NCBI GenBank assembly: GCA_964016885.1
Contig: OZ024743.1
Span: forward strand, 357,926,001 to 357,990,000
Direction: 5' to 3'
Source: Eledone cirrhosa
Lineage: Eukaryota
DNA length: 64,000 nucleotides
Under the pieces are notes generated by a model. That model was not told where the DNA came from. It ran no database searches and saw only the letters and a program-made list of their open reading frames with translations. The translations under genes and the position numbers were made by a program. How positions within the stretch are numbered: the stretch's first letter is position 1; the number at the start of each line of letters is the position of its first letter. Below are positions 1,851 to 20,938 of the stretch, one piece after another.

Positions 1851-1890
<40 letters not shown>
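1833..1890. repeat. (TTC)n microsatellite in tRNA unit spacer
   Basis: Directly visible. Confidence 0.95.
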
Positions 1891-1892
<2 letters not shown>

Positions 1893-2208: not shown

Positions 2209-2280
2209 GAACAGAGCGTAGTTTCGATCTATGAACCTGTGGGTTTTGGGACGAGCACGGTTCCACTGCGCCACTCTGCT
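2209..2280 (-). pseudogene. inverted degenerate tRNA-iMet
   Basis: Reverse complement reads agcagagtggcgcagtggaaccgtgctcgtcccaaaacccacaggttcatagatcgaaactacgctctgttc. Confidence 0.85.
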
Positions 2281-2660
2281 AAGTGGCTTTTGTGGGGTGA
2301 ATTTCCACAAATATTTCTTGCTGCATTATTATTGCCTTCTATTTTTCTTGTTTTTCCATTCTCCGTGAGTTATTTGACAGGTATTCTACCCAGAAGAAAT
2401 TGATCCAAGATCACCGTATTCCACCCATGTTTAGGATTATCTAGGAATAATATATCCAATATATAGCAGGTCGATTGAGCTTTATTTCAAGTAACAAATA
2501 CCTATTAGATCCCAATACTCTCCACGTCTGGATACAGCAGATTTTGTACTGAGAAAGAAAGAGAGGGAGAGAATAAATGTGAGGGAGTGACATAGAGGAA
2601 GAATCTACCCAGTATTTGACTGGTACAGAAGCAGAAATTCACCATTTAAAAACTAATTAG

Positions 2661-2713
2661 AAGCATGCTGAGCCCATAATGCAGAAGTCTGTAGACCAAA
2701 ACTACGTTCTGCA
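2661..2713 (+). pseudogene. 5'-truncated tRNA-iMet fragment
   Basis: aagcatgctgagcccataatgcagaagtctgtagaccaaaactacgttctgc. Confidence 0.7.
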
Positions 2714-2781
2714 ATTCATTTTTTTTTTTTCTGAGTGGAATACATTGATCTTGGATCAACTTCGTCTGGGTAGGGAACTAA

Positions 2782-3335
2782 TGTAGCGAGCTCTGTTTAC
2801 CCCTTGAACCTTGGGTGACACCTAAAGGTCAAATTCTAGTTCACCACCATTTTGGTGTGAACAGGTTGATGTGTTGGCTAACCCCTAAAGGTGCTAGACA
2901 GGAAGCGATAGGTATATAAAGCCTGTATCATCCCACGTTTATATAGAGACATCGGAGCACCCCACTACAGAACAAGCTATGTGAAAGATTCACCACTATC
3001 AACAGACCCCAGTGGTCTACAGAAAGACAAGAAAGATTGGAGCATTACGCTAGCAACTAACTATGTAAAGATTCACCGCTATCTTCAGCCCCTTGAGGTC
3101 TACAGAGACACAGACATCGGAGTACTACGAATTACAACAAGCTATGTAAAGATTCACCGTTATCAACAGGCCCCAGTGGTCTACAGAAATACAGAGAGAA
3201 TAGAGTAACGACGACAACGTCAACCTACTACTACAGACCATTCAGAGGTATACAAACCATTACTCTCTCTCACTCACTATGGTCTCAGACTCACGACGAA
3301 AACTACTATGACGACTGCAACAAACTTCACCATTT
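2782..3335 (+). mobile_element. foreign ~550-bp insert, possibly an LTR fragment, containing three ~85-bp tandem repeats
   Basis: Not homologous to the tRNA units; begins TGTAGCG; TATATAAA at ~2913; repeated ctatgt(g)aaagattcacc...ggtctacaga at ~2977, 3061 and 3142; boundaries approximate. Confidence 0.4.
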
Positions 3336-3356
3336 AATTCACCGTTTAAAAACCAG

Positions 3357-3410
3357 AAGCGTGCTGAGCCCAAAACCCAGAAATCCGTAAACCAAAACTA
3401 CGCTCTGGCA
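3357..3410 (+). pseudogene. 5'-truncated tRNA-iMet fragment
   Basis: aagcgtgctgagcccaaaacccagaaatccgtaaaccaaaactacgctctg; same truncation as the fragment at 2661. Confidence 0.7.
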
Positions 3411-3574
3411 TTCATTTTTTTTTTCTTTCTGAGTGGAATACTTTGATCTTGGATCAACTTCTGGGTAGAATACCTGTCAAATAACTGGTGGAGAATGAAA
3501 AATGCAAGATAAATAGAAGGCAATAATAATACAACAAGAAATATTTGCGGAAATTCAGCAGACGAAAACCAGTT

Positions 3575-3646
3575 AGCAGAGTGGCGCAGTGGAAGCGTGC
3601 TGGGCCCATAACCCAGAGGTCCGTAGATCGAAACTACGCTCTGCTA
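3575..3646 (+). tRNA. tRNA-iMet: initiator tRNA-Met (CAT), intact
   Basis: Identical 72-mer; T8 terminator downstream. Confidence 0.95.
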
Positions 3647-4061
3647 ATCATTTTTTTTCTTTTCTTTCAGTTAATAAGTTATTCCGATATAATCTCCCTA
3701 TAAAACATTTAAACAAATTGTATTTAATAGATGTTTGTTACTCTTTTTCGAAAGGTCCTTCAGCCGACCAGCTAGGCACCTAATGTCCCTAAAATTATGC
3801 TTTACTACTAATATAATTCGACATATATATTGCGCCACACTGAGGACATACTGTTCTATTCCATACAGAAAGCATTGGATAAATTACTTCCAGTTGAAGC
3901 TAGTTGTAGAGATGTCATATCTGGAACACTTTTGATAACAGATCAGCATTTAAAGTAGAATATCTGTCAAATAACGGGTGGAGAAAGAAAAAGAAAATGC
4001 GGACAAATGGCAGCAATAGAGCCCTCAATAAATGCAGGATTTCTCAAGAGTTAAGCAAGTT

Positions 4062-4132
4062 AGCAGAGTGGCGCAGTGGAAGCGTGTTGGTCCCATAACC
4101 GTTGGTTCATAGATCGAAACAACGCTCTGTTG
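4062..4132 (+). pseudogene. degenerate tRNA-iMet (type B)
   Basis: Anticodon stem and T stem disrupted. Confidence 0.85.
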
Positions 4133-4555
4133 CTTAAATGTATCTTTCTGTGAATATGTCATTGACTTATAATCTCCCTGTAACACATTTTGTATACTTT
4201 TCATCAAATTTTCTTAAATAAATTTGACTACAGTTTTTAGAAAGGAAATTCAGTCGACCGGCTAGCTTCTTAATGTCTCGAAAATTACGCTCTACAAGCT
4301 TTACTATTGAATATATATTGTGTCACTCACTGAGGACATAGTATTCTGTTATACACATTAGACATATATAGGCTAAATTACTACATGGAAATCATAGACC
4401 AAGATATGATCACGTCAGGAATACTTTTATCACGGATCAGTTTGATTAAGATAGAATATTTGTCAATTAATTGGAGGAGAAGGAAAAAACAAGAAGGAAA
4501 CAGGCAACAATAAAACAGAAAATATATGCTGGAATTTACACGCCAGAAAACAGTT

Positions 4556-4627
4556 AATACAGTGATGTAGTGGAAGTATTCTGGTCCCATAACACAGTGG
4601 TCTGTTGATTAATACTACACTCTGTCC
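4556..4627 (+). pseudogene. highly degenerate tRNA-iMet (type C)
   Basis: agtgatgtagtggaagtattctggtcccataacacagtggtctgttgattaatactacactctg; CpGs lost. Confidence 0.75.
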
Positions 4628-4659
4628 ATATGTTATTACGGTATAATCTCACTATTTTG

Positions 4660-4829
4660 TCTTCTTCTTCTTCTTCTTCTTCTTCTTCTTCTTCTTCTTC
4701 TTCTTCTTCTTCTTCTTCTTCTTCTTCTTCTTCTTCTTCTTCTTCTTCTTCTTCTTTCTTCTTCTTCTTCTTCTTCTTCTTCTTCTTCTTCTTCTTCTTC
4801 TTCTTCTTCTTCTTCTTCTTCTTCTTCTT
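4660..4829. repeat. (TTC)n microsatellite, ~170 bp
   Basis: Directly visible; one phase shift at ~4755. Confidence 0.97.
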
Positions 4830-4914
4830 TAAATATCGGGTAGGGAAATAAAGAAAACAAAAAGTAATCAATAGATCACGCAATAAATGCTGAATATCAG
4901 CGTGAGGAAAACGT

Positions 4915-4986
4915 AGCAGAGTGGCGCAGTGGAAGCGTGCTGGGCCCATAACCCAGAGGTCCGTAGATCGAAACTACGCTCTGCTA
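4915..4986 (+). tRNA. tRNA-iMet: initiator tRNA-Met (CAT), intact
   Basis: Identical 72-mer; T5 terminator downstream. Confidence 0.95.
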
Positions 4987-5400
4987 ATCAACATTTTTCT
5001 TTTCTTTCAGTTAATAAATTATTGCGATATAATTTCCCTATAAAACATTTAAACAAATTTTATTTAATAGATGTTTGTTACTCTTTTTCGAAAGGTCCTT
5101 CAGCCGACCAGCTAGGCACCTAATGTCCCTAAAATTATGCTTTACTACTAATATAATTCGACATATATATTGCGCCACACTTAGGACATACTGTTCTATT
5201 CTATACAGAAAGCATTGGATAAATTACTTCCAGATGAACCTAGTTGTAGAGATGTCATATCTGGAATACTTTTGATCACAGATCAGCATTTAAAGTAGAA
5301 TATCTGTCCAATAACCGTTGGAAAAAGAAAAACAAAATGGAGAAAATGGCAGCAATAGAGCCCTTCATAACTGCAGGATTTCCCTGGAGTTAGGCAAGTT

Positions 5401-5472
5401 AGCAGAGTGGTGCAGTGGAAGCGTGCTGGTCCCATAACCCAGAGATTCATAGATCGAAACAACACTCTGTTG
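5401..5472 (+). pseudogene. degenerate tRNA-iMet (type B)
   Basis: Multiple stem mismatches relative to the intact copies. Confidence 0.85.
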
Positions 5473-5896
5473 TTTAAAATGTTTCTTACTGTGAATATGT
5501 CATTGCCTTATAATCTCCCTGTAACACATTGTGTATACTTTTCATCAAATTTTCTTAAATAAGTTTTACTAGAGTTTTTAGAAAGGACATTCAGTCTAGC
5601 GGCTAGCTTCTTAATGTCCCAAAAATTACGCTCTACTGGCTTTATTATTGAACATATATTGTGTCACTCATTGAGGACATACTGTTCTGTTATATACATA
5701 AGACATATATAGGCTAAATTACTACAAGGAAATCATACACGAAGACATGATCACGTCAAGAATACTTTTATCACGGATCAGTTTGATTAAGATAGAATAT
5801 TTGTCAATTAATTGGAGGAGAAGGAAAAAACAAGAAGGAAAGAGGCAACAATAAAACAGAAAATATATGCTGGAATTTACCAGGCAGTAAAAAGTT

Positions 5897-5968
5897 AATA
5901 CAGTGATGTAGTGGAAGTATGCTGGTCCCATAACACAGTGGTCTGTTGATTAATACTACACTCTGTCC
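5897..5968 (+). pseudogene. highly degenerate tRNA-iMet (type C)
   Basis: Paralog of 4556-4627, offset 1341 bp. Confidence 0.75.
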
Positions 5969-6000
5969 ATGTGTTATTACGGAATAATCTGACTATTTTG

Positions 6001-6076
6001 TCTTCTTCTTCTTCTTCTTCTTCTTCTTCTTCTTCTTCTTCTTCTTCTTCTTCTTCTTCTTCTTCTTCTTCTTCTT
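6001..6076. repeat. (TTC)n microsatellite
   Basis: Directly visible. Confidence 0.97.
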
Positions 6077-6166
6077 TAAATATCGGGTAGGGAAAGAAAG
6101 AAAACAAAAAGTAATCAATCAATAGATCACGCAATAAATGCTGAATATCAGCGTGAGGAAAACAGT

Positions 6167-6233
6167 AGCAGAGTGGTGCAGTGGAAGCGTGCTGGGCCCA
6201 TAACTCAGAGGTCCGTAGATCGAAACTACGCTC
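6167..6233 (+). pseudogene. 3'-truncated tRNA-iMet
   Basis: Two C>T changes; last 5 nt of the acceptor stem and the terminator are removed by a deletion that jumps to attaattggaggagaagg. Confidence 0.85.
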
Positions 6234-6323
6234 ATTAATTGGAGGAGAAGGAAAAAACAGGAGGGAAAAAGGCAACAATAAAACAGAAAATATATGCTGG
6301 AATTTACACGCCAGGAAACAGTT

Positions 6324-6395
6324 ATTTAAGTGATGTAGTGGAAGTATACTGGTCCCATAACACAGAGGTCTGTTGATTAATACTACACTCTGTCG
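6324..6395 (+). pseudogene. highly degenerate tRNA-iMet (type C)
   Basis: Paralog of the copies at 4556 and 5897. Confidence 0.7.
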
Positions 6396-6434
6396 ATATG
6401 TTATTACCGTATAATCTCACTATAACATATTTTG

Positions 6435-6480
6435 TCTTCTTCTTCTTCTTCTTATCATTATTATTATTATTATTATTATT
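6435..6480. repeat. left junction of the array: (TCT)6 T ATC(ATT)8
   Basis: tttgtcttcttcttcttcttcttATCATTATT...ATT then GAATGCC. Confidence 0.95.
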
Positions 6481-6693
6481 GAATGCCATGGTTGACGGAG
6501 GCTCGGCTCTGTAAGGTATAGTAATTTTTAACCGTTAAAACAATTGTAAATTGTTTAAAACTTGAACCAAATTGTTGATAAAGACACCCTCCTCCTCGTG
6601 AGAGGGGTCTTTCTGTCCGTTATTTGGCCCTTCGGGGTTAAATAGCCAGTTATTGGGGTTTTGTACCCAAAATTTCATTTTAAACAAAAAAAC
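6481..6693 (+). promoter_or_regulatory. 213-nt structured 5' UTR (presumed internal promoter)
   Basis: Hairpins at 6538-6556, 6580-6612 and 6619-6646 (12-bp stem, UUCG loop); promoter role is inferred from L1-clade biology. Confidence 0.55.
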
Positions 6694-8793
6694 ATGGCTA
6701 CCAAAAAAAAAAAATTTCATACGTCACTCCCACTCATTCCGTCTTCTTCTTCCTCAATCATCACTACAGGAGAGAGAAGATTGTCTCTCTCCCTCCCTTC
6801 TTTAAATGTGTCTCTCTCCCTACCTTCTCTTTCGCAAGCGACGAAAGAAAAGAAAAGTCTCGTGCAAAGCGTGCAAGGTTTCTCCACGACGACGACGACA
6901 GCGACGAAACAGGTGTGCGGGAAATACGAAAACCCAGTTCATTCGTCTGACGTCAGGAATAATAGCAGTAGCAGCCGTAATAACAACAGCAACAGTGACA
7001 ATGAAAACAACAGTAGCAGCCGCAACAGCATCACCAGCAGCATAAACAACAACAGCATTAGCAGCAGCAACACCAACAACAACCACAGCAACAGCGGCGG
7101 AGGCAGTAGTCGTAGTGCCTGCAGCAACAACAAAAGTACCAGCAGCTCTGACGACAACAACAACAGCAGAGAAAAACCAATCTCATTTGCAGGTATTGCG
7201 AAAAACCTGGAAACAATCCTCATAACAAATGAGGAATTAGAGGAAGCGAAGAAGATGGTGACAAAGAACGGACACCGAGCAATCTGCAAGGCAGCGAAAA
7301 ATTTTTTCGAAACCCAAGAGCACTGTACGGTCACGTACCGTACAGTAAGTACAAAATCCCGTAGGGTGGAAAGAGCCACAGAGGCCCAAATACAAAAAGC
7401 CTTGGGGTCTGTGTGGCAGAGGAAAACGCACATCACCCGAGGCAAAAAATACGCCACCGTAGACGTACTTTTTGCCACACCCCAGGAGGCAAAGGCCCAA
7501 TCAGTAGTGACCCTAAGGAGCGAGGAAATGGTGTTGGTGCCCTCCTACTGCGGGCAAAAAATTGTGAGGGTCAAACTGACCCACGTCCCCCCCGGAATGA
7601 CCCCTTCTTGGCTGGCCGCGTCTGTCCTCGTCGGAATCGAGGACAAAACAACTGTACTGCAAGTACAGAAAAAAGTAAGAGAAGATTGGGTCGGCTCCTC
7701 CATTGAGATGCTAATCCAAACCAACCAGGAGTGCATCGAAGCTATCCCGGATGTGATAGACTTCGATAACGGCACTCAACTGCCCATAAGTGTTGAGGGC
7801 AAACGCCCGAAATGCTTTCGCTGTGGATCGAAGACTCACCTCAGGGCCTTCTGCAACGAGAAGACCCTGAGAAAGGAGAAAACCCCCCTCCTCCCGAATC
7901 CGGTTCCACGGCTACCAGCAACAGGACAAGCGGCAACCAGGAACGATAGGTCCGTGGCACCCATACCCACTCCACGGAAATCAAAGACAGCAGCAGCAGT
8001 GGAAATATTAACAACAACAACAGCAATACCAAATGCAGCTGCAACAGAGACTCCAGTGCAAACATCACCAACAACAACAAGTGAAAGAGTGGAGCTGGTA
8101 CCCCTCCCCGACCTTACAGAATCAGACATGGAGTGTGAGGTGGGAGAGGGATGGCAAAAGGTCTCAAGAAGGCACAAACGCAGAAGCAGCGCATCGTCGC
8201 CTTTGAAAAGGGAGGAAAGAAATGAGAAAAGGGTAAAGTCTACTGCAAAGAGACCCACAGCAGCAACACCACCAACACCATCACCACCCACACCAGCACC
8301 ACCATCACCACCGGCGACAACCCCACCGCCAACAACACCTTCAACACCACCACCACAAGCACCAACATCGCAAACACAACAACAAAACACACACACCCAG
8401 CAACAACGACAAGAAAATAGCAGAACCACACCCCACCCCCAGAAAAACAAATGCACGGCAATAAACACACACAACAAGAAACTAATGACTTACATAATTG
8501 AACACACAGACATTTCACAACAGGACTACATAATACCAGCACCAATCAAAACGCCAACTAACATAAGACTGCTAAAAATAGCACAGAAACAATACACAAA
8601 CATTAAAACGAAATTCCCCAACGCAGTTGGTGATTTCAGGGACCTAGGAGGAACCATTAATCGAAGAGTATATTCAGACATTCTCTTAGAAGAGCCGACG
8701 ACCAGCCGAAGGGACGATTCAACGGTCCCTTCACCAGACGATCAAGTGAAAAGGGATGTAAAAACCATCCCTCCTCTACCAAAAATACGGTAA
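6694..8793 (+). CDS. ORF1p, gag-like nucleic-acid-binding protein with CCHC knuckle (copy 1, 699 aa from ATG)
   Basis: CFRCGSKTHLRAFC = CX2CX4HX4C; first ATG in aacATGG context (the track start at 6661 is TTG); low-complexity S/N and P/T/Q flanks. Confidence 0.9.
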   Translation: MATKKKKFHTSLPLIPSSSSSIITTGERRLSLSLPSLNVSLSLPSLSQATKEKKSLVQSVQGFSTTTTTATKQVCGKYENPVHSSDVRNNSSSSRNNNSNSDNENNSSSRNSITSSINNNSISSSNTNNNHSNSGGGSSRSACSNNKSTSSSDDNNNSREKPISFAGIAKNLETILITNEELEEAKKMVTKNGHRAICKAAKNFFETQEHCTVTYRTVSTKSRRVERATEAQIQKALGSVWQRKTHITRGKKYATVDVLFATPQEAKAQSVVTLRSEEMVLVPSYCGQKIVRVKLTHVPPGMTPSWLAASVLVGIEDKTTVLQVQKKVREDWVGSSIEMLIQTNQECIEAIPDVIDFDNGTQLPISVEGKRPKCFRCGSKTHLRAFCNEKTLRKEKTPLLPNPVPRLPATGQAATRNDRSVAPIPTPRKSKTAAAVEILTTTTAIPNAAATETPVQTSPTTTSERVELVPLPDLTESDMECEVGEGWQKVSRRHKRRSSASSPLKREERNEKRVKSTAKRPTAATPPTPSPPTPAPPSPPATTPPPTTPSTPPPQAPTSQTQQQNTHTQQQRQENSRTTPHPQKNKCTAINTHNKKLMTYIIEHTDISQQDYIIPAPIKTPTNIRLLKIAQKQYTNIKTKFPNAVGDFRDLGGTINRRVYSDILLEEPTTSRRDDSTVPSPDDQVKRDVKTIPPLPKIR

Positions 8794-8828
8794 GTGGTCT
8801 TTCCCATCTTTTCCACTCTATTTTAAAC

Positions 8829-11800
8829 ATGACCTCACTCAGAATAGGCAGCATAAATGCGCGTGGCTTGGGGTCGTCATGGAAGCAGGGTCACCTGCTC
8901 AACGACCTCAGGTCACTAAACATAGATGTAGTGGCCATCAGCGAGACCAGAATCTCCGAAGCACGGGCCTTCGCACCGATCTTCGGCGGCTACGATGTGT
9001 ACGCATCTCCCAGCCGTCCTGGATCGGGTGGAGGAGTTGCTGTGCTTTTTCGGAGAGGTTTGGATCTCGCCATACGGGCCATCTTCCTGGACCCAGAGGG
9101 TAAGCTGGTGGTGCTGGACGTGACCAGCGGAGACGGGCAAGCTTTCAGGCTAGTGGCCGTCTATGCCCCGACAGGAGCAGGGCGGCCTGATTTCTTCCGG
9201 CGTCTGGAGACCTTTCTTGGAACGTCGCGCTCTTTAGTGTTAGTGGGCGACTGGAACGGGATCTTAGATGCACGCTGGGACTGTGTGGGATTAGCGGATA
9301 GGGGTGGAGGGTGCAAGAGCCTCACCAACCTGCTCAGGCGTTTTGAACTGTCTGACAGGTACCGATTGGATTTCCCGAATGTGCCAATGTGGACTTGGAC
9401 AAACCGCATAGGGTCATCCAGATCATATCTAGATAGAGTATTTTGTAGGGAAATAGATAGGTCTAGCATAGGCTGTCCACAATTCAAGATAGTCAGCTAC
9501 ACGGACCACAAATTCGTGATCTGTGTGCTTGACTTAGATAGGCTTCATAGACGAGGACCCGGCTACTGGAAGCTAAACGCGTCCTTACCAGCGCGCAAGG
9601 CCTACAGAGACCGGATTAGCGAACTAGTTAAGCGGGCGTTGACGGGGGCCATCGTCAACAACAAGTGGTGGTTTGCTCTGAAAAGAGCGATTAGAATAGA
9701 ATCGATTAGGTTTAGTAAGGCTTTAGCAATAGAGAAAAATAGAGCAGAGGGAGAACTAGTTAGAAAATTAGACGAGGCGCTTAGCAAAGGCATTGCGACC
9801 GACGTGCTTGCGGCGAAATTGGCCCTTGACCAATTCTTCAATGCAAAGCACGAAGGCTGCGTTGTCAGAGCTAGGGTGCGTGCTCTCAGACACGAGGGGA
9901 CGAAAGCCGTTCAATGGGCCCGAGTGGCGGAGGCGCGTCGTGGCAACAAAGCCACGATCCGGTCTTTGGTGGACCACGACGGGCGCATGCTACTCGATCC
10001 CGGGCAAATGTGTGAAGCTTTTCAGCGACACTTCGCTCAGCTGTTCGGGGGCAGCGGGGGGCCGGGTAGAGGGATGGACTTTAGTGTCTACCTCGACGGA
10101 CTGCCGCGGCTCTCGGCCACTGAGGCGAAGTGTTGCGAAAAGCCGATAACAGCCGCTGAAGTAAGGGAGGCAATGACTGGCTGCACAAGGGGTAAATCGC
10201 CTGGTTTGGATGGTCTGCCCTATGAACTTTACGTACAGATGCCAGACTTGTTCGGAGGCCTCTTAGCGGACGTCTACTGCAACTGGCAACAGAACGGGAG
10301 AATTCCCAGTTCTGTGAGCCGAGGAGCGGTAGCACTGCTGAGAAAGGATCCGAACAAGGGGGATAACATAGACAATTTCCGGCCCATAACTCTGCTAAAC
10401 ACAGAGTTTAAGATTTTGGCCAAGGTGCTAGCAAAGAGGTTGGCGCTTGTCGTTGGTGGTCTGGTGGGAGAGGCGCAGACATGCGCCATTCCCGACAGAT
10501 CCATCCACGACAACCTCCACCTCATGCGATACATCGTAGAGAGGGTAGCTAGGGAACCTGGCACGGGTGGGTCCTTGATCAATTTAGATCAGTCGAAAGC
10601 TTTCGATAGGGTCGACCATCGTTACCTAGCGGCAGTCCTGAGGGCGGCTGGCTTTGGGCCCGTCTTCAGAGGCTGGATCGCTGCCATGCACAGCGACATC
10701 TGCTCTGTGGTGAGAGTGAACGGTCACCTGTCGGAACCGTTCAACATCATGCGCTCGGTCCGCCAAGGATGTCCCCTCTCGTCCCTCTTGTACGTATTGA
10801 CTCTCGAGCCATTACTGCACAAACTGGAGACGTTGAGGGGAGTCCCGCGCGAACTAGGATGCGGAAGATCCGTGTCAGCATATGCGGACGATGTCACCGT
10901 AGTGGTGTCGAACGCCAAACACATCGAGGCGATCGGCACTACACTAAGAGAATACGAAGCGGTGACAGGAGCAATGATCAACCAGGAAAAGTCAGTGGGC
11001 CTGCAGCTCGGCACCTGGAGAGGCAGGTCCATGCCGTCCAACAGCGTCGTCGGGCGCTGGACGGACGGACCGGTTAAATTGCTAGGGGTCTGGTTCGGTC
11101 CGGACCTCCAGACGGACAAAAACTGGGACGAGGTGACGAGCAGGGTGGCTTCTCTCACCCAGAAATGGGCGGAGAGGAAGCTATCCCTGAAAGGTCGAGC
11201 GGAGGTGGCTAACGCGTACATCGCGTCTGTCATCTGCTACCGCCTAACCGTCGTACCTTGTCCTAAGCCTCGCCTGACTGCGCTGGAGCGTTTGCTCTTT
11301 CGCTTTTTGTGGAAGGGACGTGCTCCGATGGTCAGGCGGTCCATCTGTTGTCAACACCCGCTACGTGGAGGGCTGGGCATGCCGTGGCTGATGATGCGCA
11401 GGCACGCGCTCAGGCTACGACATCTCCACCTCTTCCTCGACGGTGATCAGGTGTGGTCGCCGTTTGCTAGACGCGTTTTTCCCCAGCTCGTTTCCTTGAC
11501 GGAGCTGCAGTCCTGGGTCAAGCGAAGACCGAGAGGGAGCGCCTGGAGACTGGAATGTCTTCAGGCGCTCACAGCCCTCGACCAATCGGGCAATGTGATC
11601 GGTGGAAACTCCACCTCGGCGTTCTATAGAGGATTAGTGGAGGGGAAGAGCGACGACGTACTTGGGGAAACTCTAGGCGTCGACGAAAATCAACTAGCCA
11701 ATCTCTTCGGAAGAACTTTCGGGCCAGGGCCTATGGACAACTTCCAGAAATCTCTGGCCTGGCAGTGCTACCGAGGAGCCTTGCCAGTTCGGGATAAACT

Positions 11801-12248
11801 CTACAGGCATGGAGGTGCCGTCAGCCGGGCATGTCCGAGATGCGCGCAGGGCGACGAAACCGTCCTGCACGCACTCGTCCAGTGTCCGAAAATTGCTGAC
11901 TTGTGGGTTTATGTCGAACACCTGCTGTCGCGTTTAGGACGGATCCAGCTATCATCTGAGTCCATCGTGAGGATTGCCCCGCCCTCCTCCTTTAGCCGGG
12001 AAGGGCAGGCAGTTTTTATCTGTCTGGTGGCCATGGCGAAAGAGATAGTATGGTGGACACGTTTGAAAGGGCTGAAGACGAGCACTTACCTCTTCGGTGA
12101 TGCTCTGATTGACTTTTTCAAATTTCATTTGAAAAGGAAAATCAGAGTAGAGAGGGAAGTGCTCTCTTCCCAGCATTTTGTTGAAAGATGGGTGAGAGAA
12201 GCAAGAATGGCCCGAGTGAATGGGCCGACTCTGAGTATATATCTGTAA
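8829..12248 (+). CDS. ORF2p: APE endonuclease, reverse transcriptase, C-terminal Zn motif (copy 1, 1139 aa)
   Basis: EN motifs SINARGL, SET, VYAP, GDWN, LDRV, TDH; RT motifs PGLDG, FRPITLLN, DQSKAFDRV, RQGCPLS, YADD, NQEKS; CPRC-X8-H-X4-C. Confidence 0.97.
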   Translation: MTSLRIGSINARGLGSSWKQGHLLNDLRSLNIDVVAISETRISEARAFAPIFGGYDVYASPSRPGSGGGVAVLFRRGLDLAIRAIFLDPEGKLVVLDVTSGDGQAFRLVAVYAPTGAGRPDFFRRLETFLGTSRSLVLVGDWNGILDARWDCVGLADRGGGCKSLTNLLRRFELSDRYRLDFPNVPMWTWTNRIGSSRSYLDRVFCREIDRSSIGCPQFKIVSYTDHKFVICVLDLDRLHRRGPGYWKLNASLPARKAYRDRISELVKRALTGAIVNNKWWFALKRAIRIESIRFSKALAIEKNRAEGELVRKLDEALSKGIATDVLAAKLALDQFFNAKHEGCVVRARVRALRHEGTKAVQWARVAEARRGNKATIRSLVDHDGRMLLDPGQMCEAFQRHFAQLFGGSGGPGRGMDFSVYLDGLPRLSATEAKCCEKPITAAEVREAMTGCTRGKSPGLDGLPYELYVQMPDLFGGLLADVYCNWQQNGRIPSSVSRGAVALLRKDPNKGDNIDNFRPITLLNTEFKILAKVLAKRLALVVGGLVGEAQTCAIPDRSIHDNLHLMRYIVERVAREPGTGGSLINLDQSKAFDRVDHRYLAAVLRAAGFGPVFRGWIAAMHSDICSVVRVNGHLSEPFNIMRSVRQGCPLSSLLYVLTLEPLLHKLETLRGVPRELGCGRSVSAYADDVTVVVSNAKHIEAIGTTLREYEAVTGAMINQEKSVGLQLGTWRGRSMPSNSVVGRWTDGPVKLLGVWFGPDLQTDKNWDEVTSRVASLTQKWAERKLSLKGRAEVANAYIASVICYRLTVVPCPKPRLTALERLLFRFLWKGRAPMVRRSICCQHPLRGGLGMPWLMMRRHALRLRHLHLFLDGDQVWSPFARRVFPQLVSLTELQSWVKRRPRGSAWRLECLQALTALDQSGNVIGGNSTSAFYRGLVEGKSDDVLGETLGVDENQLANLFGRTFGPGPMDNFQKSLAWQCYRGALPVRDKLYRHGGAVSRACPRCAQGDETVLHALVQCPKIADLWVYVEHLLSRLGRIQLSSESIVRIAPPSSFSREGQAVFICLVAMAKEIVWWTRLKGLKTSTYLFGDALIDFFKFHLKRKIRVEREVLSSQHFVERWVREARMARVNGPTLSIYL

Positions 12249-12507
12249 ACTAAAGGTGGAAAACTGGGAGAGGGCACTTGCCTTGGTGGTCAGGGTCATT
12301 GTGGCTTTTTACTGGGCTTTCTCCACAAATGTCCCTCCGAAGTCTCCCCCCTATTGGGGAATTTTTCATTGTTATTTTCATTGTTATTTTTGTTACATCC
12401 TCTGTTTTTGTTTTTTTACACGCAGAAATGCCCATTTGTACCGTCCTGCATTGTCCTGCACTGTCCTTAATGTCTACTTTATGTAAACCCTTGTGGTTAA
12501 TAAAGAA

Positions 12508-12558
12508 ATCATTATTATTATTATTATTATTATTATTGTTATTATTATTATTATTATT
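12508..12558. repeat. linker ATC(ATT)9GTT(ATT)6
   Basis: Counted directly. Confidence 0.9.
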
Positions 12559-12771
12559 GAATGCCATGGTTGACGGAGGCTCGGCTCTGTAAGGTATAGT
12601 AATTTTTAACCGTTAAAACAATTGTAAATTGTTTAAAACTTGAACCAAATTGTTGATAAAGACACCCTCCTCCTCGTGAGAGGGGTCTTTCTGTCCGTTA
12701 TTTGGCCCTTCGGGGTTAAATAACCAGTTATTGGGGTTTTGTACCCAAAATTTCATTTTAAACAAAAAAAC

Positions 12772-14868
12772 ATGGCTACCAAAAAGAAATTTCATACGTC
12801 ACTCCCACTCATTCCGTCTTCTTCTTCCTCAATCATCACTACAGCAGAGAGAAGATTGTCTCTCTCCCTCCCTTCTTTAAATGTGTCTCTCTCCCTCCCT
12901 TCTCTTTCGCAAGCGACGAAAGAAAATAAAAGTCTCGTGCAAAGCGTGCAAGGTTTCTCCACGACGACGACGACAGCGACGAAACAGGTGTGCGGGAAAT
13001 ACGAAAACCCAGTTCATTCGTCTGACGTCAGGAATAATAGCAGTAGCAGCCGTAATAACAACAGCAACAGTGACAATGAAAACAACAGTAGCAGCCGCAA
13101 CAGCATCACCAGCAGCATAAACAACAACAGCATTAGCAGCAGCAACACCAACAACAACCACAGCAACAGCGGCGGAGGCAGTAGTCGTAGTACCTGCAGC
13201 AACAACAAAAGTACCAGCAGCTCTGACGACAACAACAACAGCAGAGAAAAACCAATCTCATTTGCAGGTATTGCGAAAAACCTGGAAACAATCCTCATAA
13301 CAAATGAGGAATTAGAGGAAGCGAAGAAGATGGTGACAAAGAACGGACACCGAGCAATCTGCAAGGCAGCGAAAAATTTTTTCGAAACCCAAGAGCACTG
13401 TACGGTCACGTACCGTACAGTAAGTACAAAATCCCGTAGGGTGGAAAGAGCCACAGAGGCCCAAATACAAAAAGCCTTGGGGTCTGTGTGGCAGAGGAAA
13501 ACGCACATCACCCGAGGCAAAAAATACGCCACCGTAGACGTACTTTTTGCCACACCCCAGGAGGCAAAGGCCCAATCAGTAGTGACCCTAAGGAGCGAGG
13601 AAATGGTGTTGGTGCCCTCCTACTGCGGGCAAAAAATTGTGAGGGTCAAACTGACCCACGTCCCCCCCGGAATGACCCCTTCTTGGCTGGCCGCGTCTGT
13701 CCTCGTCGGAATCGAGGACAAAACAACTGTACTGCAAGTACAGAAAAAAGTAAGAGAAGATTGGGTCGGCTCCTCCATTGAGATGCTAATCCAAACCAAC
13801 CAGGAGTGCATCGAAGCTATCCCGGATGTGATAGACTTCGATAACGGCACTCAACTGCCCATAAGTGTTGAGGGCAAACGCCCGAAATGCTTTCGCTGTG
13901 GATCGAAGACTCACCTCAGGGCCTTCTGCAACGAGAAGACCCTGAGAAAGGAGAAAACCCCCCTCCTCCCGAATCCGGTTCCACGGCTACCAGCAACAGG
14001 ACAAGCGGCAACCAGGAACGATAGGTCCGTGGCACCCATACCCACTCCACGGAAATCAAAGACAGCAGCAGCAGTGGAAATATTAACAACAACAACAGCA
14101 ATACCAAATGCAGCTGCAACAGAGACTCCAGTGCAAACATCACCAACAACAACAAGTGAAAGAGTGGAGCTGGTACCCCTCCCCGACCTTACAGAATCAG
14201 ACATGGAGTGTGAGGTGGGAGAGGGATGGCAAAAGGTCTCAAGAAGGCACAAACGCAGAAGCAGCGCATCGTCGCCTTTGAAAAGGGAGGAAAGAAATGA
14301 GAAAAGGGTAAAGTCTACTGCAAAGAGACCCACAGCAGCAACACCACCAACACCATCACCACCCACACCAGCACCACCATCACCACCGGCGACAACCCCA
14401 CCGCCAACAACACCTTCAACACCACCACCACAAGCACCAACATCGCAAACACAACAACAAAACACACACACCCAGCAACAACGACAAGAAAATAGCAGAA
14501 CCACACCCCACCCCCAGAAAAACAAATGCACGGCAATAAACACACACAACAAGAAACTAATGACTTACATAATTGAACACACAGACATTTCACAACAGGA
14601 CTACATAATACCAGCACCAATCAAAACGCCAACTAACATAAGACTGCTAAAAATAGCACAGAAACAATACACAAACATTAAAACGAAATTCCCCAACGCA
14701 GTTGGTGATTTCAGGGACCTAGGAGGAACCATTAATCGAAGAGTATATTCAGACATTCTCTTAGAAGAGCCGACGACCAGCCGAAGGGACGATTCAACGG
14801 TCCCTTCACCAGACGATCAAGTGAAAAGGGATGTAAAAACCATCCCTCCTCTACCAAAAATACGGTAA
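12772..14868 (+). CDS. ORF1p copy 2
   Basis: As copy 1. Confidence 0.9.
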   Translation: MATKKKFHTSLPLIPSSSSSIITTAERRLSLSLPSLNVSLSLPSLSQATKENKSLVQSVQGFSTTTTTATKQVCGKYENPVHSSDVRNNSSSSRNNNSNSDNENNSSSRNSITSSINNNSISSSNTNNNHSNSGGGSSRSTCSNNKSTSSSDDNNNSREKPISFAGIAKNLETILITNEELEEAKKMVTKNGHRAICKAAKNFFETQEHCTVTYRTVSTKSRRVERATEAQIQKALGSVWQRKTHITRGKKYATVDVLFATPQEAKAQSVVTLRSEEMVLVPSYCGQKIVRVKLTHVPPGMTPSWLAASVLVGIEDKTTVLQVQKKVREDWVGSSIEMLIQTNQECIEAIPDVIDFDNGTQLPISVEGKRPKCFRCGSKTHLRAFCNEKTLRKEKTPLLPNPVPRLPATGQAATRNDRSVAPIPTPRKSKTAAAVEILTTTTAIPNAAATETPVQTSPTTTSERVELVPLPDLTESDMECEVGEGWQKVSRRHKRRSSASSPLKREERNEKRVKSTAKRPTAATPPTPSPPTPAPPSPPATTPPPTTPSTPPPQAPTSQTQQQNTHTQQQRQENSRTTPHPQKNKCTAINTHNKKLMTYIIEHTDISQQDYIIPAPIKTPTNIRLLKIAQKQYTNIKTKFPNAVGDFRDLGGTINRRVYSDILLEEPTTSRRDDSTVPSPDDQVKRDVKTIPPLPKIR

Positions 14869-14903
14869 GTGGTCTTTCCCATCTTTTCCACTCTATTTTA
14901 AAC

Positions 14904-17900
14904 ATGACCTCACTCAGAATAGGCAGCATAAATGCGCGTGGCTTGGGGTCGTCATGGAAGCAGGGTCACCTGCTCAACGACCTCAGGTCACTAAACATAG
15001 ATGTAGTGGCCATCAGCGAGACCAGAATCTCCGAAGCACGGGCCTTCGCACCGATCTTCGGCGGCTACGATGTGTACGCATCTCCCAGCCGTCCTGGATC
15101 GGGTGGAGGAGTTGCTGTGCTTTTTCGGAGAGGTTTGGATCTCGCCATACGGGCCATCTTCCTGGACCCAGAGGGTAAGCTGGTGGTGCTGGACGTGACC
15201 AGCGGAGACGGGCAAGCTTTCAGGCTAGTGGCCGTCTATGCCCCGACAGGAGCAGGGCGGCCTGATTTCTTCCGGCGTCTGGAGACCTTTCTTGGAACGT
15301 CGCGCTCTTTAGTGTTAGTGGGCGACTGGAACGGGATCTTAGATGCACGCTGGGACTGTGTGGGATTAGCGGATAGGGGTGGAGGGTGCAAGAGCCTCAC
15401 CAACCTGCTCAGGCGTTTTGAACTGTCTGACAGGTACCGATTGGATTTCCCGAATGTGCCAATGTGGACTTGGACAAACCGCATAGGGTCATCCAGATCA
15501 TATCTAGATAGAGTATTTTGTAGGGAAATAGATAGGTCTAGCATAGGCTGTCCACAATTCAAGATAGTCAGCTACACGGACCACAAATTCGTGATCTGTG
15601 TGCTTGACTTAGATAGGCTTCATAGACGAGGACCCGGCTACTGGAAGCTAAACGCGTCCTTACCAGCGCGCAAGGCCTACAGAGACCGGATTAGCGAACT
15701 AGTTAAGCGGGCGTTGACGGGGGCCATCGTCAACAACAAGTGGTGGTTTGCTCTGAAAAGAGCGATTAGAATAGAATCGATTAGGTTTAGTAAGGCTTTA
15801 GCAATAGAGAAAAATAGAGCAGAGGGAGAACTAGTTAGAAAATTAGACGAGGCGCTTAGCAAAGGCATTGCGACCGACGTGCTTGCGGCGAAATTGGCCC
15901 TTGACCAATTCTTCAATGCAAAGCACGAAGGCTGCGTTGTCAGAGCTAGGGTGCGTGCTCTCAGACACGAGGGGACGAAAGCCGTTCAATGGGCCCGAGT
16001 GGCGGAGGCGCGTCGTGGCAACAAAGCCACGATCCGGTCTTTGGTGGACCACGACGGGCGCATGCTACTCGATCCCGGGCAAATGTGTGAAGCTTTTCAG
16101 CGACACTTCGCTCAGCTGTTCGGGGGCAGCGGGGGGCCGGGTAGAGGGATGGACTTTAGTGTCTACCTCGACGGACTGCCGCGGCTCTCGGCCACTGAGG
16201 CGAAGTGTTGCGAAAAGCCGATAACAGCCGCTGAAGTAAGGGAGGCAATGACTGGCTGCACAAGGGGTAAATCGCCTGGTTTGGATGGTCTGCCCTATGA
16301 ACTTTACGTACAGATGCCAGACTTGTTCGGAGGCCTCTTGACGGACGTCTACTGCAACTGGCAACAGAACGGGAGAATTCCCAGTTCTGTGAGCCGAGGA
16401 GCGGTGGCACTGCTGAGAAAGGATCCGAACAAGGGGGATAACATAGACAATTTCCGGCCCATAACTCTGCTAAACACAGAGTTTAAGATTTTGGCCAAGG
16501 TGCTAGCAAAGAGGTTGGCGCTTGTCGTTGGTGGTCTGGTGGGAGAGGCGCAGACATGCGCCATTCCCGACAGATCCATCCACGACAACCTCCACCTCAT
16601 GCGATACATCGTAGAGAGGGTAGCTAGGGAACCTGGCACGGGTGGGTCCTTGATCAATTTAGATCAGTCGAAAGCTTTCGATAGGGTCGACCATCGTTAC
16701 CTAGCGGCAGTCCTGAGGGCGGCTGGCTTTGGGCCCGTCTTCAGAGGCTGGATCGCTGCCATGCACAGCGACATCTGCTCTGTGGTGAGAGTGAACGGTC
16801 ACCTGTCGGAACCGTTCAACATCATGCGCTCGGTCCGCCAAGGATGTCCCCTCTCGTCCCTCTTGTACGTATTGACTCTCGAGCCATTACTGCACAAACT
16901 GGAGACGTTGAGGGGAGTCCCGCGCGAACTAGGATGCGGAAGATCCGTGTCAGCATATGCGGACGATGTCACCGTAGTGGTGTCGAACGCCAAACACATC
17001 GAGGCGATCGGCACTACACTAAGAGAATACGAAGCGGTGACAGGAGCAATGATCAACCAGGAAAAGTCAGTGGGCCTGCAGCTCGGCACCTGGAGAGGCA
17101 GGTCCATGCCGTCCAACAGCGTCGTCGGGCGCTGGACGGACGGACCGGTTAAATTGCTAGGGGTCTGGTTCGGTCCGGACCTCCAGACGGACAAAAACTG
17201 GGACGAGGTGACGAGCAGGGTGGCTTCTCTCACCCAGAAATGGGCGGAGAGGAAGCTATCCCTGAAAGGTCGAGCGGAGGTGGCTAACGCGTACATCGCG
17301 TCTGTCATCTGCTACCGCCTAACCGTCGTACCTTGTCCTAAGCCTCGCCTGACTGCGCTGGAGCGTTTGCTCTTTCGCTTTTTGTGGAAGGGACGTGCTC
17401 CGATGGTCAGGCGGTCCATCTGTTGTCAACACCCGCTACGTGGAGGGCTGGGCATGCCGTGGCTGATGATGCGCAGGCACGCGCTCAGGCTACGACATCT
17501 CCACCTCTTCCTCGACGGTGATCAGGTGTGGTCGCCGTTTGCTAGACGCGTTTTTCCCCAGCTCGTTTCCTTGACGGAGCTGCAGTCCTGGGTCAAGCGA
17601 AGACCGAGAGGGAGCGCCTGGAGACTGGAATGTCTTCAGGCGCTCACAGCCCTCGACCAATCGGGCAATGTGATCGGTGGAAACTCCACCTCGGCGTTCT
17701 ATAGAGGATTAGTGGAGGGGAAGAGCGACGACGTACTTGGGGAAACTCTAGGCGTCGACGAAAATCAACTAGCCAATCTCTTCGGAAGAACCTTCGGGCC
17801 AGGGCCTATGGACAACTTCCAGAAATCTCTGGCCTGGCAGTGCTACCGAGGAGCCTTGCCAGTTCGGGATAAACTCTACAGGCATGGAGGTGCCGTCAGC

Positions 17901-18323
17901 CGGGCATGTCCGAGATGCGCGCAGGGCGACGAAACCGTCCTGCACGCACTCGTCCAGTGTCCGAAAATTGCTGACTTGTGGGTTTATGTCGAACACCTGC
18001 TGTCGCGTTTAGGACGGATCCAGCTATCATCTGAGTCTATCGTGAGGATTGCCCCGCCCTCCTCCTTTAGCCGGGAAGGGCAGGCAGTTTTTATCTGTCT
18101 GGTGGCCATGGCGAAAGAGATAGTATGGTGGACACGTTTGAAAGGGCTGAAGACGAGCACTTACCTCTTCGGTGATGCTCTGATTGACTTTTTCAAATTT
18201 CATTTGAAAAGGAAAATCAGAGTAGAGAAGGAAGTGCTCTCTTCCCAGCATTTTGTTGAAAGATGGGTGAGAGAAGCAAGAATGGCCCGAGTGAATGGGC
18301 CGACTCTGAGTATATATCTGTAA
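14904..18323 (+). CDS. ORF2p copy 2
   Basis: As copy 1, intact 1139 aa. Confidence 0.97.
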   Translation: MTSLRIGSINARGLGSSWKQGHLLNDLRSLNIDVVAISETRISEARAFAPIFGGYDVYASPSRPGSGGGVAVLFRRGLDLAIRAIFLDPEGKLVVLDVTSGDGQAFRLVAVYAPTGAGRPDFFRRLETFLGTSRSLVLVGDWNGILDARWDCVGLADRGGGCKSLTNLLRRFELSDRYRLDFPNVPMWTWTNRIGSSRSYLDRVFCREIDRSSIGCPQFKIVSYTDHKFVICVLDLDRLHRRGPGYWKLNASLPARKAYRDRISELVKRALTGAIVNNKWWFALKRAIRIESIRFSKALAIEKNRAEGELVRKLDEALSKGIATDVLAAKLALDQFFNAKHEGCVVRARVRALRHEGTKAVQWARVAEARRGNKATIRSLVDHDGRMLLDPGQMCEAFQRHFAQLFGGSGGPGRGMDFSVYLDGLPRLSATEAKCCEKPITAAEVREAMTGCTRGKSPGLDGLPYELYVQMPDLFGGLLTDVYCNWQQNGRIPSSVSRGAVALLRKDPNKGDNIDNFRPITLLNTEFKILAKVLAKRLALVVGGLVGEAQTCAIPDRSIHDNLHLMRYIVERVAREPGTGGSLINLDQSKAFDRVDHRYLAAVLRAAGFGPVFRGWIAAMHSDICSVVRVNGHLSEPFNIMRSVRQGCPLSSLLYVLTLEPLLHKLETLRGVPRELGCGRSVSAYADDVTVVVSNAKHIEAIGTTLREYEAVTGAMINQEKSVGLQLGTWRGRSMPSNSVVGRWTDGPVKLLGVWFGPDLQTDKNWDEVTSRVASLTQKWAERKLSLKGRAEVANAYIASVICYRLTVVPCPKPRLTALERLLFRFLWKGRAPMVRRSICCQHPLRGGLGMPWLMMRRHALRLRHLHLFLDGDQVWSPFARRVFPQLVSLTELQSWVKRRPRGSAWRLECLQALTALDQSGNVIGGNSTSAFYRGLVEGKSDDVLGETLGVDENQLANLFGRTFGPGPMDNFQKSLAWQCYRGALPVRDKLYRHGGAVSRACPRCAQGDETVLHALVQCPKIADLWVYVEHLLSRLGRIQLSSESIVRIAPPSSFSREGQAVFICLVAMAKEIVWWTRLKGLKTSTYLFGDALIDFFKFHLKRKIRVEKEVLSSQHFVERWVREARMARVNGPTLSIYL

Positions 18324-18583
18324 ACTAAAGGTGGAAAACTGGGAGAGGGCACTTGCCTTGGTGGTCAGGGTCATTGTGGCTTTTTACTGGGCTTTCTCCA
18401 CAAATGTTCCTCCGAAGTCTCCCCCCTATTGGGGAATTTTTCATTGTTATTTTCATTGTTATTTTTGTTACATCCTCTATTTTTGTTTTTTTTACACGCA
18501 GAAATGCCCATTTGTACCGTCCTGCATTGTCCTGCACTGTCCTTAATGTCTACTTTATGTAAACCCTTGTGGTTAATAAAGAA

Positions 18584-18625
18584 ATCATTATTATTATTAT
18601 TATTGTTATTATTATTATTATTATT
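18584..18625. repeat. linker ATC(ATT)6GTT(ATT)6
   Basis: Counted directly. Confidence 0.9.
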
Positions 18626-18838
18626 GAATGCCATGGTTGACGGAGGCTCGGCTCTGTAAGGTATAGTAATTTTTAACCGTTAAAACAATTGTAAATTGTT
18701 TAAAACTTGAACCAAATTGTTGATAAAGACACCCTCCTCCTCGTGAGAGGGGTCTTTCTGTCCGTTATTTGGCCCTTCGGGGTTAAATAGCCAGTTATTG
18801 GGGTTTTGTACCCAAAATTTCATTTTAAACAAAAAAAC

Positions 18839-20938
18839 ATGGCTACCAAAAAAAAAAAATTTCATACGTCACTCCCACTCATTCCGTCTTCTTCTTCCTC
18901 AATCATCACTACAGGAGAGAGAAGATTGTCTCTCTCCCTCCCTTCTTTAAATGTGTCTCTCTCCCTACCTTCTCTTTCGCAAGCGACGAAAGAAAAGAAA
19001 AGTCTCGTGCAAAGCGTGCAAGGTTTCTCCACGACGACGACGACAGCGACGAAACAGGTGTGCGGGAAATACGAAAACCCAGTTCATTCGTCTGACGTCA
19101 GGAATAATAGCAGTAGCAGCCGTAATAACAACAGCAACAGTGACAATGAAAACAACAGTAGCAGCCGCAACAGCATCACCAGCAGCATAAACAACAACAG
19201 CATTAGCAGCAGCAACACCAACAACAACCACAGCAACAGCGGCGGAGGCAGTAGTCGTAGTACCTGCAGCAACAACAAAAGTACCAGCAGCTCTGACGAC
19301 AACAACAACAGCAGAGAAAAACCAATCTCATTTGCAGGTATTGCGAAAAACCTGGAAACAATCCTCATAACAAATGAGGAATTAGAGGAAGCGAAGAAGA
19401 TGGTGACAAAGAACGGACACCGAGCAATCTGCAAGGCAGCGAAAAATTTTTTCGAAACCCAAGAGCACTGTACGGTCACGTACCGTACAGTAAGTACAAA
19501 ATCCCGTAGGGTGGAAAGAGCCACAGAGGCCCAAATACAAAAAGCCTTGGGGTCTGTGTGGCAGAGGAAAACGCACATCACCCGAGGCAAAAAATACGCC
19601 ACCGTAGACGTACTTTTTGCCACACCCCAGGAGGCAAAGGCCCAATCAGTAGTGACCCTAAGGAGCGAGGAAATGGTGTTGGTGCCCTCCTACTGCGGGC
19701 AAAAAATTGTGAGGGTCAAACTGACCCACGTCCCCCCCGGAATGACCCCTTCTTGGCTGGCCGCGTCTGTCCTCGTCGGAATCGAGGACAAAACAACTGT
19801 ACTGCAAGTACAGAAAAAAGTAAGAGAAGATTGGGTCGGCTCCTCCATTGAGATGCTAATCCAAACCAACCAGGAGTGCATCGAAGCTATCCCGGATGTG
19901 ATAGACTTCGATAACGGCACTCAACTGCCCATAAGTGTTGAGGGCAAACGCCCGAAATGCTTTCGCTGTGGATCGAAGACTCACCTCAGGGCCTTCTGCA
20001 ACGAGAAGACCCTGAGAAAGGAGAAAACCCCCCTCCTCCCGAATCCGGTTCCACGGCTACCAGCAACAGGACAAGCGGCAACCAGGAACGATAGGTCCGT
20101 GGCACCCATACCCACTCCACGGAAATCAAAGACAGCAGCAGCAGTGGAAATATTAACAACAACAACAGCAATACCAAATGCAGCTGCAACAGAGACTCCA
20201 GTGCAAACATCACCAACAACAACAAGTGAAAGAGTGGAGCTGGTACCCCTCCCCGACCTTACAGAATCAGACATGGAGTGTGAGGTGGGAGAGGGATGGC
20301 AAAAGGTCTCAAGAAGGCACAAACGCAGAAGCAGCGCATCGTCGCCTTTGAAAAGGGAGGAAAGAAATGAGAAAAGGGTAAAGTCTACTGCAAAGAGACC
20401 CACAGCAGCAACACCACCAACACCATCACCACCCACACCAGCACCACCATCACCACCGGCGACAACCCCACCGCCAACAACACCTTCAACACCACCACCA
20501 CAAGCACCAACATCGCAAACACAACAACAAAACACACACACCCAGCAACAACGACAAGAAAATAGCAGAACCACACCCCACCCCCAGAAAAACAAATGCA
20601 CGGCAATAAACACACACAACAAGAAACTAATGACTTACATAATTGAACACACAGACATTTCACAACAGGACTACATAATACCAGCACCAATCAAAACGCC
20701 AACTAACATAAGACTGCTAAAAATAGCACAGAAACAATACACAAACATTAAAACGAAATTCCCCAACGCAGTTGGTGATTTCAGGGACCTAGGAGGAACC
20801 ATTAATCGAAGAGTATATTCAGACATTCTCTTAGAAGAGCCGACGACCAGCCGAAGGGACGATTCAACGGTCCCTTCACCAGACGATCAAGTGAAAAGGG
20901 ATGTAAAAACCATCCCTCCTCTACCAAAAATACGGTAA
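18839..20938 (+). CDS. ORF1p copy 3
   Basis: As copy 1. Confidence 0.9.
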   Translation: MATKKKKFHTSLPLIPSSSSSIITTGERRLSLSLPSLNVSLSLPSLSQATKEKKSLVQSVQGFSTTTTTATKQVCGKYENPVHSSDVRNNSSSSRNNNSNSDNENNSSSRNSITSSINNNSISSSNTNNNHSNSGGGSSRSTCSNNKSTSSSDDNNNSREKPISFAGIAKNLETILITNEELEEAKKMVTKNGHRAICKAAKNFFETQEHCTVTYRTVSTKSRRVERATEAQIQKALGSVWQRKTHITRGKKYATVDVLFATPQEAKAQSVVTLRSEEMVLVPSYCGQKIVRVKLTHVPPGMTPSWLAASVLVGIEDKTTVLQVQKKVREDWVGSSIEMLIQTNQECIEAIPDVIDFDNGTQLPISVEGKRPKCFRCGSKTHLRAFCNEKTLRKEKTPLLPNPVPRLPATGQAATRNDRSVAPIPTPRKSKTAAAVEILTTTTAIPNAAATETPVQTSPTTTSERVELVPLPDLTESDMECEVGEGWQKVSRRHKRRSSASSPLKREERNEKRVKSTAKRPTAATPPTPSPPTPAPPSPPATTPPPTTPSTPPPQAPTSQTQQQNTHTQQQRQENSRTTPHPQKNKCTAINTHNKKLMTYIIEHTDISQQDYIIPAPIKTPTNIRLLKIAQKQYTNIKTKFPNAVGDFRDLGGTINRRVYSDILLEEPTTSRRDDSTVPSPDDQVKRDVKTIPPLPKIR

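Follow-up and report, generated by a model that had tools for sequence, protein, structure and literature searches.

Completion of the 5' end is the least understood step of LINE retrotransposition. Templated insertions and duplication-like rearrangements of human L1 were reportedly described by Gilbert et al. in 2005. Templated L1 insertions in human tumours resemble, in their finishing step, the process considered here, but in the available passages of the source they are rare, with 22 cases and templates mostly shorter than 250 bp (bioRxiv 10.1101/2024.08.27.596794). In the family studied here, by contrast, such completion looks routine, and a resident copy from the same family appears to guide array growth. 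Zorro3, an L1-clade element of Candida, is comparable in that simple-repeat tracts at the ends of both element and target allow template switches, but the tracts are poly(A) instead of ATT, and the products described in the passages available are circles (PMC3510499).

Other close parallels concern target choice and tandem stacking. The Tx1 families Kibi in (TC)n and Koshi in (TTC)n, and crocodilian families in (TTCC)n or (TTTC)n, are, like the present family, two-ORF, APE-type LINEs that reside in microsatellites, and the same passages describe sequential tandem insertions of SINEU-3 around a duplicated target (PMC4494074). Compared with Kibi and Koshi as presented there, our family targets (ATT)n, with (TTC)n merely a neighbouring block, is mostly full length when young, and forms arrays of up to 21 units (PMC4494074). 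R1 arrays in Drosophila 28S rDNA likewise arise by insertion into the target left ahead of a resident, and the upstream target sequence of melanogaster-type R1 RNA anneals to give precise 5' junctions, an arrangement that we liken to the AUU leader suggested below; in the parts of the source available, R1 spacers are a fixed 14-bp duplication, whereas the blocks described here span 21 bp to 3.8 kb and appear to include the resident's own 5' end (PMC2718515). Satellites derived from transposable elements have been traced to double insertion followed by unequal exchange; the likeness lies in non-LTR tandems made by repeated insertion and later expanded by such exchange, but most non-LTR tandems in the passages concerned are tail-to-truncated, whereas the array reported here is full length in 21 of 21 units and has duplicated host flank (PMC5932611). 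Recently active L1-Tx1 and Dong-R4 families are known from an octopus, in passages that contain no target analysis (PMC13282606). A literature search limited to openly accessible papers found neither an (ATT)n-specific Tx1 family nor resident-guided array completion.

Here, we report the analysis of 64,000 nucleotides of the Eledone cirrhosa genome (hereafter the window; contig OZ024743.1, positions 357,926,001 to 357,990,000, forward strand), to which 140 kb downstream and 60 kb upstream were added; all counts and comparisons are drawn from one 3.0-Gb assembly (GCA_964016885.1). The locus is an array of 21 full-length units arranged head-to-tail at 6481-133751 in window coordinates, ten of them within the window. 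The units belong to a young, 6.0-kb L1/Tx1-like LINE (unit length 6.02-6.03 kb), the Tx1 label being our presumption, and a tRNA-Met cluster surrounds the array, with tRNA-Met genes on both sides. An assembly artefact is unlikely, since 20 of the 21 units differ by substitutions. The features at the left edge are as follows.

235 to 4987, + strand: four tRNA-Met(CAT) genes (starts at 235, 711, 3574 and 4914) of the cluster around the array
6428 to 6480, + strand: host compound microsatellite at the 5' edge of the array, (TTC)5 TT ATC(ATT)8, without G
6481 to 12510, + strand: unit 1 of 21, a full-length 6.03-kb LINE, from GAATG... to ...AATAAAGAAATC
8661 to 12248, + strand: ORF2 of unit 1, 1195 codons stop to stop, with APE endonuclease, RT and zf-RVT
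12499 to 12504, + strand: AATAAA, 6 nt 5' of the ATT run
12559 to 18586, + strand: unit 2, with ORF1 at 12772-14868 (no Pfam hit) and the ORF2 frame at 14736-18323

The element has the layout of an APE-type non-LTR retrotransposon, with a separate ORF1 upstream, no LTRs and 5'-truncated copies in the genome. Its ORF2 carries an N-terminal APE endonuclease, RT and a C-terminal zinc motif, as in the L1/Tx1 group (PF03372, PF00078 and PF13966 above cut-off), and its best PDB match is human L1 ORF2p (E 2e-52, with R2 at 1e-21). A homolog search for clade names returned a single named protein among 66, a Ciona pol-like protein at 27%, and no named Tx1 reference was among them. The ORF1 frame spans 713-715 codons in all 21 units, again without a Pfam hit. 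Both frames are open in 20 of the 21; the exception is unit 18 (109544-115564, beyond the window), the sole unit with a shortened ORF2 frame (932 codons). The AATAAA near the 3' end is a candidate poly(A) signal, with transcripts predicted to end inside the ATT run. The predicted fold of the 5' UTR (18626-18845) beats 200 of 200 shuffles (z -3.4), and pairing is predicted between the first GCCAUG of this region and the CAUGGC at the ORF1 start codon.

Exact patterns retrieve 7813 3' ends, 1856 young-type 3' ends and 1628 full-length 5' ends from the 3.0-Gb assembly; the last two numbers mark 5' truncation as unusually scarce for a LINE. Six copies (L268, L276, L280, L286, L287 and L291) combine the young ORF2 and 3' end with different sequence upstream of element position 2262-2306, and are a subfamily with another ORF1/5' half. 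Many copies adjoin a second LINE family in opposite orientation, which we take to be Dong/R4-like, and also a short ATT-tailed repeat, a copy of which lies between units 3 and 4 of the array at C1:114.79M.

The junctions between units follow a strict grammar. In the window, 9 of 9 internal junctions read AATAAAGAA-ATC(ATT)n, with n = 9, 6, 7, 7, 8, 7, 8, 6 and 6, and six of the nine then add GTT(ATT)6 before GAATG, exactly as the preliminary description had it.

12508 to 12537, + strand: linker 1, variable block ATC(ATT)9, the element 3' end in register with the ATT run
12538 to 12558, + strand: linker 1, fixed block GTT(ATT)6, a locus-specific interrupted ATT run before the next copy
18584 to 18625, + strand: linker 2, ATC(ATT)6 GTT(ATT)6
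24654 to 24677, + strand: linker 3, ATC(ATT)7
30705 to 30749, + strand: linker 4, ATC(ATT)7 GTT(ATT)6
36772 to 36798, + strand: linker 5, ATC(ATT)8
42827 to 42871, + strand: linker 6, ATC(ATT)7 GTT(ATT)6
48900 to 48926, + strand: linker 7, ATC(ATT)8
54955 to 54996, + strand: linker 8, ATC(ATT)6 GTT(ATT)6
61018 to 61059, + strand: linker 9, ATC(ATT)6 GTT(ATT)6

Across the whole array the second block is present in 13 of 20 internal linkers, where the first block has n = 9, 6, 7, 7, 6, 6, 4, 6, 6, 9, 6, 6 and 6; the seven linkers without G (J3, J5, J7, J11, J15, J14 and J18) have n = 7, 8, 8, 8, 6, 8 and 8, respectively. The sequence GTT(ATT)6|GAATG occurs 28 times in the 3.0-Gb genome, set against 1628 full-length 5' ends, and the 13 occurrences in the array exceed chance but are mutual copies rather than independent events. 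The preliminary description had tied this block to the downstream 5' end. It is indeed anchored to the 5' end of the downstream copy, but it is not part of the 5' end of the element; it is a one-off local interruption of the ATT run of this locus, an ordinary variant without function of its own, and nothing points to an edited A as the origin of the single founding G. Two associations of the G were considered and rejected: linkage to the 3' haplotype of the upstream copy, since presence and absence of the G are each found with either allele at element position 5924 and the linkers downstream of units 11 and 20 are not alike, and linkage to the common 5' allele of the array, since none of 20 solo copies chosen for that allele has the block.

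The ATT run itself belongs to the host. The 5' flank of the array, overlooked in the preliminary description, holds ATC(ATT)8 at 6454-6480, preceded by (TTC)n and without G. A paralogous unit of the tRNA cluster, 12.3 kb before the window start and with no element inside, has TTATC(ATT)6 after its (TTC)n run, which identifies the ATT at the array flank as host sequence. At its 3' end the array finishes in ATC(ATT)13, beyond which lie a short repeat and a truncated relative that is older. The tRNA-Met(CAT) cluster (window 1-6430 plus 60 kb upstream; L015-L020) consists of tandem units of ~1.55 kb, each with a (TTC)n run, and several of these runs carry reverse-orientation insertions of another repeat family.

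Genome-wide, 1571 of the 1628 full-length 5' ends lie in exact ATT|GAATG phase behind at least four ATT units, to be compared with the one repeat in >20% of flanks by which the passages available define a microsatellite-specific family (PMC4494074). Among 191 distinct 3' junction contexts, 182 start with ATC, AAC or AGC plus ATT, and none contains eight consecutive A residues within its first 30 nt, in contrast to mammalian-type L1 with its 3' poly(A) tail; the absence of poly(A) proposed from the window thus holds for genomic copies. ATT is found on both sides of every copy, so that the target is renewed, as had also been proposed. ATT targeting, lack of poly(A) and target renewal are properties of the products as observed.

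Full-length and truncated copies differ in how they meet the repeat. Before full-length copies there is a floor of about six ATT units (at least 6 in 65 of the 67 sampled; clean-edged runs range from 6 to 27, with a mode of 7). The 36 loci fetched for young 3' ends comprise 10 full-length copies, 6 with the other 5' half and 20 truncated copies, and of these 20 only 8 meet an ATT run at their junction, its phase differing from copy to copy. The floor and the fixed phase in full-length copies, set against truncated ones, suggest that the RNA carries a short AUU leader of ~6-7 units, which would explain both the six units after the G and the 6-8 units of the linkers without G; a minimum pairing length would produce the same pattern.

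Tandem junctions in which a 3' end meets a full-length 5' end via at most 39 nt number 396 in the genome. For interrupted junctions we fetched 14 loci from the 100 tandem linkers listed: two are multi-unit arrays that repeat a blemish of their own, and the rest have an older, truncated or sister element upstream, or no repeat. At C1:441.1M, ATC(ATT)2GTTGGTGTCGTT(ATT)4GCT(ATT)6 stands in the 5' flank and recurs, whole or left-truncated, in 9 of 9 internal linkers; at C2:188.05M, TC(ATT)2GTTGTT(ATT)14 is found in the flank and in 4 of 4 linkers; and at C1:114.8M, GTT(ATT)5 is found in the flank and in 3 of 3. Repeated blemishes also include (ATT)3T(ATT)8 at C1:22.04M and a 45-nt tract at L300, and three further arrays have pure ATT linkers that cannot be scored. 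What these other arrays repeat is the blemish of their own host flank, at a constant distance from the copy that follows, and the repeated blocks measure between 21 bp and 3.8 kb. The linker grammar read from the window is therefore shared across the family, with local DNA as its fixed part.

The longest blocks separate wider-spaced pairs, which were chosen non-randomly, by their repeated pattern. Upstream blocks of 3,823, 2,169 and 885 bp are identical and one of ~260 bp is near-identical; each begins in an ATT run and finishes at the GAATG of the resident copy. In one pair the first block is longer on the right (17 vs 15), which counts against the reading proposed below. A repeat at C12:31.4M picked by the same pattern was dropped, being an inverted segmental duplication (C12:31.42-31.45M, L224-L227) that contains a full-length copy and its flank.

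C3:57.46-57.48M (L232-L234), C9:23.35-23.37M (L235-L237), C1:55.44-55.45M (L228-L231) and C5:30.66-30.68M (L220-L223): tandem flank duplications of 0.26-3.8 kb, partly other transposons

The reading that we consider the most probable, and to which we give fairly good though far from full credence on the strength of these sequence comparisons, is that GTT(ATT)6 is copied anew whenever a new element inserts ahead of a resident and finishes by pairing with the resident's 5' end. The blemish would recur, then, likely because the new copy completes itself by copying the DNA just ahead of the older one. First, the APE endonuclease would nick the (AAT)n strand in the ATT run, to the left of the G. 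The RNA 3' end, ...AUC(AUU)n, would then pair in register with the freed strand and prime cDNA, so that no poly(A) would be copied and the length of the first block would record the nick; in linker 1, this length was likely set by nick position. In a third step, suggested by the products, the cDNA would end in the element 5' end plus an AAT leader of probably 6-7 units, pair with the identical (ATT)6-GAATG... of the downstream resident and extend back to the nick, thereby duplicating all DNA between nick and resident, amounting to 21 bp in the window array and up to 3,823 bp elsewhere. Where the cDNA paired in the first block, or the nick fell to the right of the G, a linker of the form ATC(ATT)6-8 without G would result. 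A full-length resident has a truncated copy directly upstream in four cases (L271, L272, L148 and L149), and resident-guided completion is not obligatory.

The same linkers, variable on the left and fixed on the right, would be produced by growth at the DNA level, in which flank and element are duplicated together through unequal exchange or template switching between the ATT run preceding a copy and its ATT tail, and gene conversion from other copies or from cDNAs brings in foreign alleles at a later stage. Several observations fit this alternative, which we nevertheless judge unlikely as the general explanation. Units 11 and 20 show zero substitution difference; units 2 and 3 at C2:90.65M have 10 private alleles in common along their entire length; near-identical units with identical linkers occur at C2:188.05M and C3:247.1M; and junctions keep register at TC(ATT)n microhomology, where no ATT is added. 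Furthermore, the first unit at C1:441.14M (L180-L181) is cut ~2.1 kb in and lacks its 3' side, followed by the full host linker, which is not a normal product of retrotransposition. Some units of the array were probably added later by unequal DNA exchange.

What weighs against DNA-level growth is the contrast between flanks and bodies. The two pairs with the longest blocks (3,823 and 2,169 bp) have 0 differences in their flanks, against about 54 and 62 listed differences in the bodies, many of them alleles common elsewhere. Exchange would thus need conversion of nearly the whole body that spares the flank and the 5' tip, always on the left copy. Allele distributions were compared in an alignment of 102 copies, with the very diverged L115, L125 and L126 left out; an allele counted as private if absent from the ~100 sampled copies of >1,600. 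Array-private alleles shared between units fall in the first 1,200 nt in 17 of 38 cases, against 43 of 324 singletons (P 0.0005, for sites that are not independent), and of the 8 arrays or pairs that have a duplicated block, 7 have the most private alleles in the right-hand copy, which so looks older. Both the clustering of shared alleles at the 5' end and the older right-hand copy are expected if a younger cDNA pairs with an older downstream resident.

The window array presents a more mixed picture. Its neighbouring units are 2-31 substitutions apart, about as different as unrelated young solo copies, which again is difficult to reconcile with DNA-level growth, and for several of them long matching stretches are found in copies on other chromosomes. 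Its last unit is not older, having 1 private allele, and neighbours do not show the pattern of alleles shared at the 5' end. Given these two features and a flank without G, the mechanism of resident-guided completion is carried over to this array from the others.

An additional trace of the RNA route is found in unit 8.

48960 to 49133, + strand: 5' UTR stretch of unit 8 with 12 A-to-G changes and no other change

The first 207 nt of this unit contain 12 A-to-G changes and nothing else, a pattern unique in the genome and the only such cluster among the 102 copies; it falls in the 5' UTR, whose strong predicted fold is noted above. Clustered A-to-G changes are described, in the passages available, as a hallmark of ADAR (PMC2873906), so that unit 8 likely passed through RNA; by its sequence the cluster is likely ADAR-edited RNA copied into DNA. 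Edited As follow G in 0 of 12 cases, compared with 8 of 59 As in the region, which is the right direction for the ADAR neighbour bias, but in too few sites to carry weight. The edited stretch has no contig match at 97% in four runs, a result without weight either way. Together with neighbours as unlike each other as solo copies, this unique cluster argues that the units came from different RNAs.

Repeated insertion of the R1 type, with an ordinary fixed target-site duplication of at least 21 nt that includes the G, would recall the Drosophila arrays, which are separated by a 14-bp target duplication in the passages available (PMC2718515), and one outside locus, L120, does combine GTT(ATT)6 ahead of the copy with ATC(ATT)4GTT in the tail. 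At the remaining 14 of 15 outside loci, however, the G is not repeated in the tail, and ordinary target duplications are therefore shorter than 21 nt; at truncated copies in imperfect targets, the two measurable cases look like ~5-11 nt. The repeated blocks, moreover, differ in size between 21 bp and 3.8 kb, and each stops precisely at the 5' end of the resident. This explanation is largely refuted, and we regard it as quite improbable.

The idea, along the lines of the preliminary description, that GTT(ATT)6 is the RNA 5' end, with its G copied from the cap, or a leader spread by array transcripts, gains some plausibility for a short AUU leader from the floor of ~6 ATT units in full-length copies, and from L120, which is close to unit 12 at the 5' end and has the block, but is refuted as a family rule and carries next to no credence otherwise: outside the array the block precedes GAATG at 15 of some 1607 full-length 5' ends, the base at that place there is G in 15 cases, C in 27 and T in 37 (by eye, from the full listing of 92), which makes G the rarest non-A base, none of the 20 solos with the array's 5' allele has it, other arrays repeat other host-derived blemishes, and the G of L120 fits the GTCGTT flank motif of other host repeats. 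An extra 5' G across many independent full-length copies, as expected from a cap, is not seen, and these base counts and the 20 solos rule out a G that is cap-derived or fixed in the family.

Resident-guided completion, as traced here, would appear to work as a variation on targeting of the Kibi and Koshi kind, stacking of the R1 kind and finishing of the templated-L1 kind; new here are the tracing by locus-specific blemishes, the blocks of kilobase length, the bias towards one side, and the edited unit. Blemished ATT runs are natural tracers of copied DNA, from start to end, at hundreds of tandem junctions. More tentatively, and with somewhat less confidence than in the recopying of the block itself, this LINE family may routinely complete its insertions via a downstream resident, such that one upstream ATT nick could add a full-length element and duplicate up to kilobases of host DNA or transposons, let arrays of intact elements, free of 5' truncation, grow to 100 kb by themselves, and fix ADAR-edited sequence in the germline. 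Should resident-guided completion hold, it would offer one way in which a dispersed LINE can turn into satellite-like arrays of intact elements and give rise to local segmental duplication.
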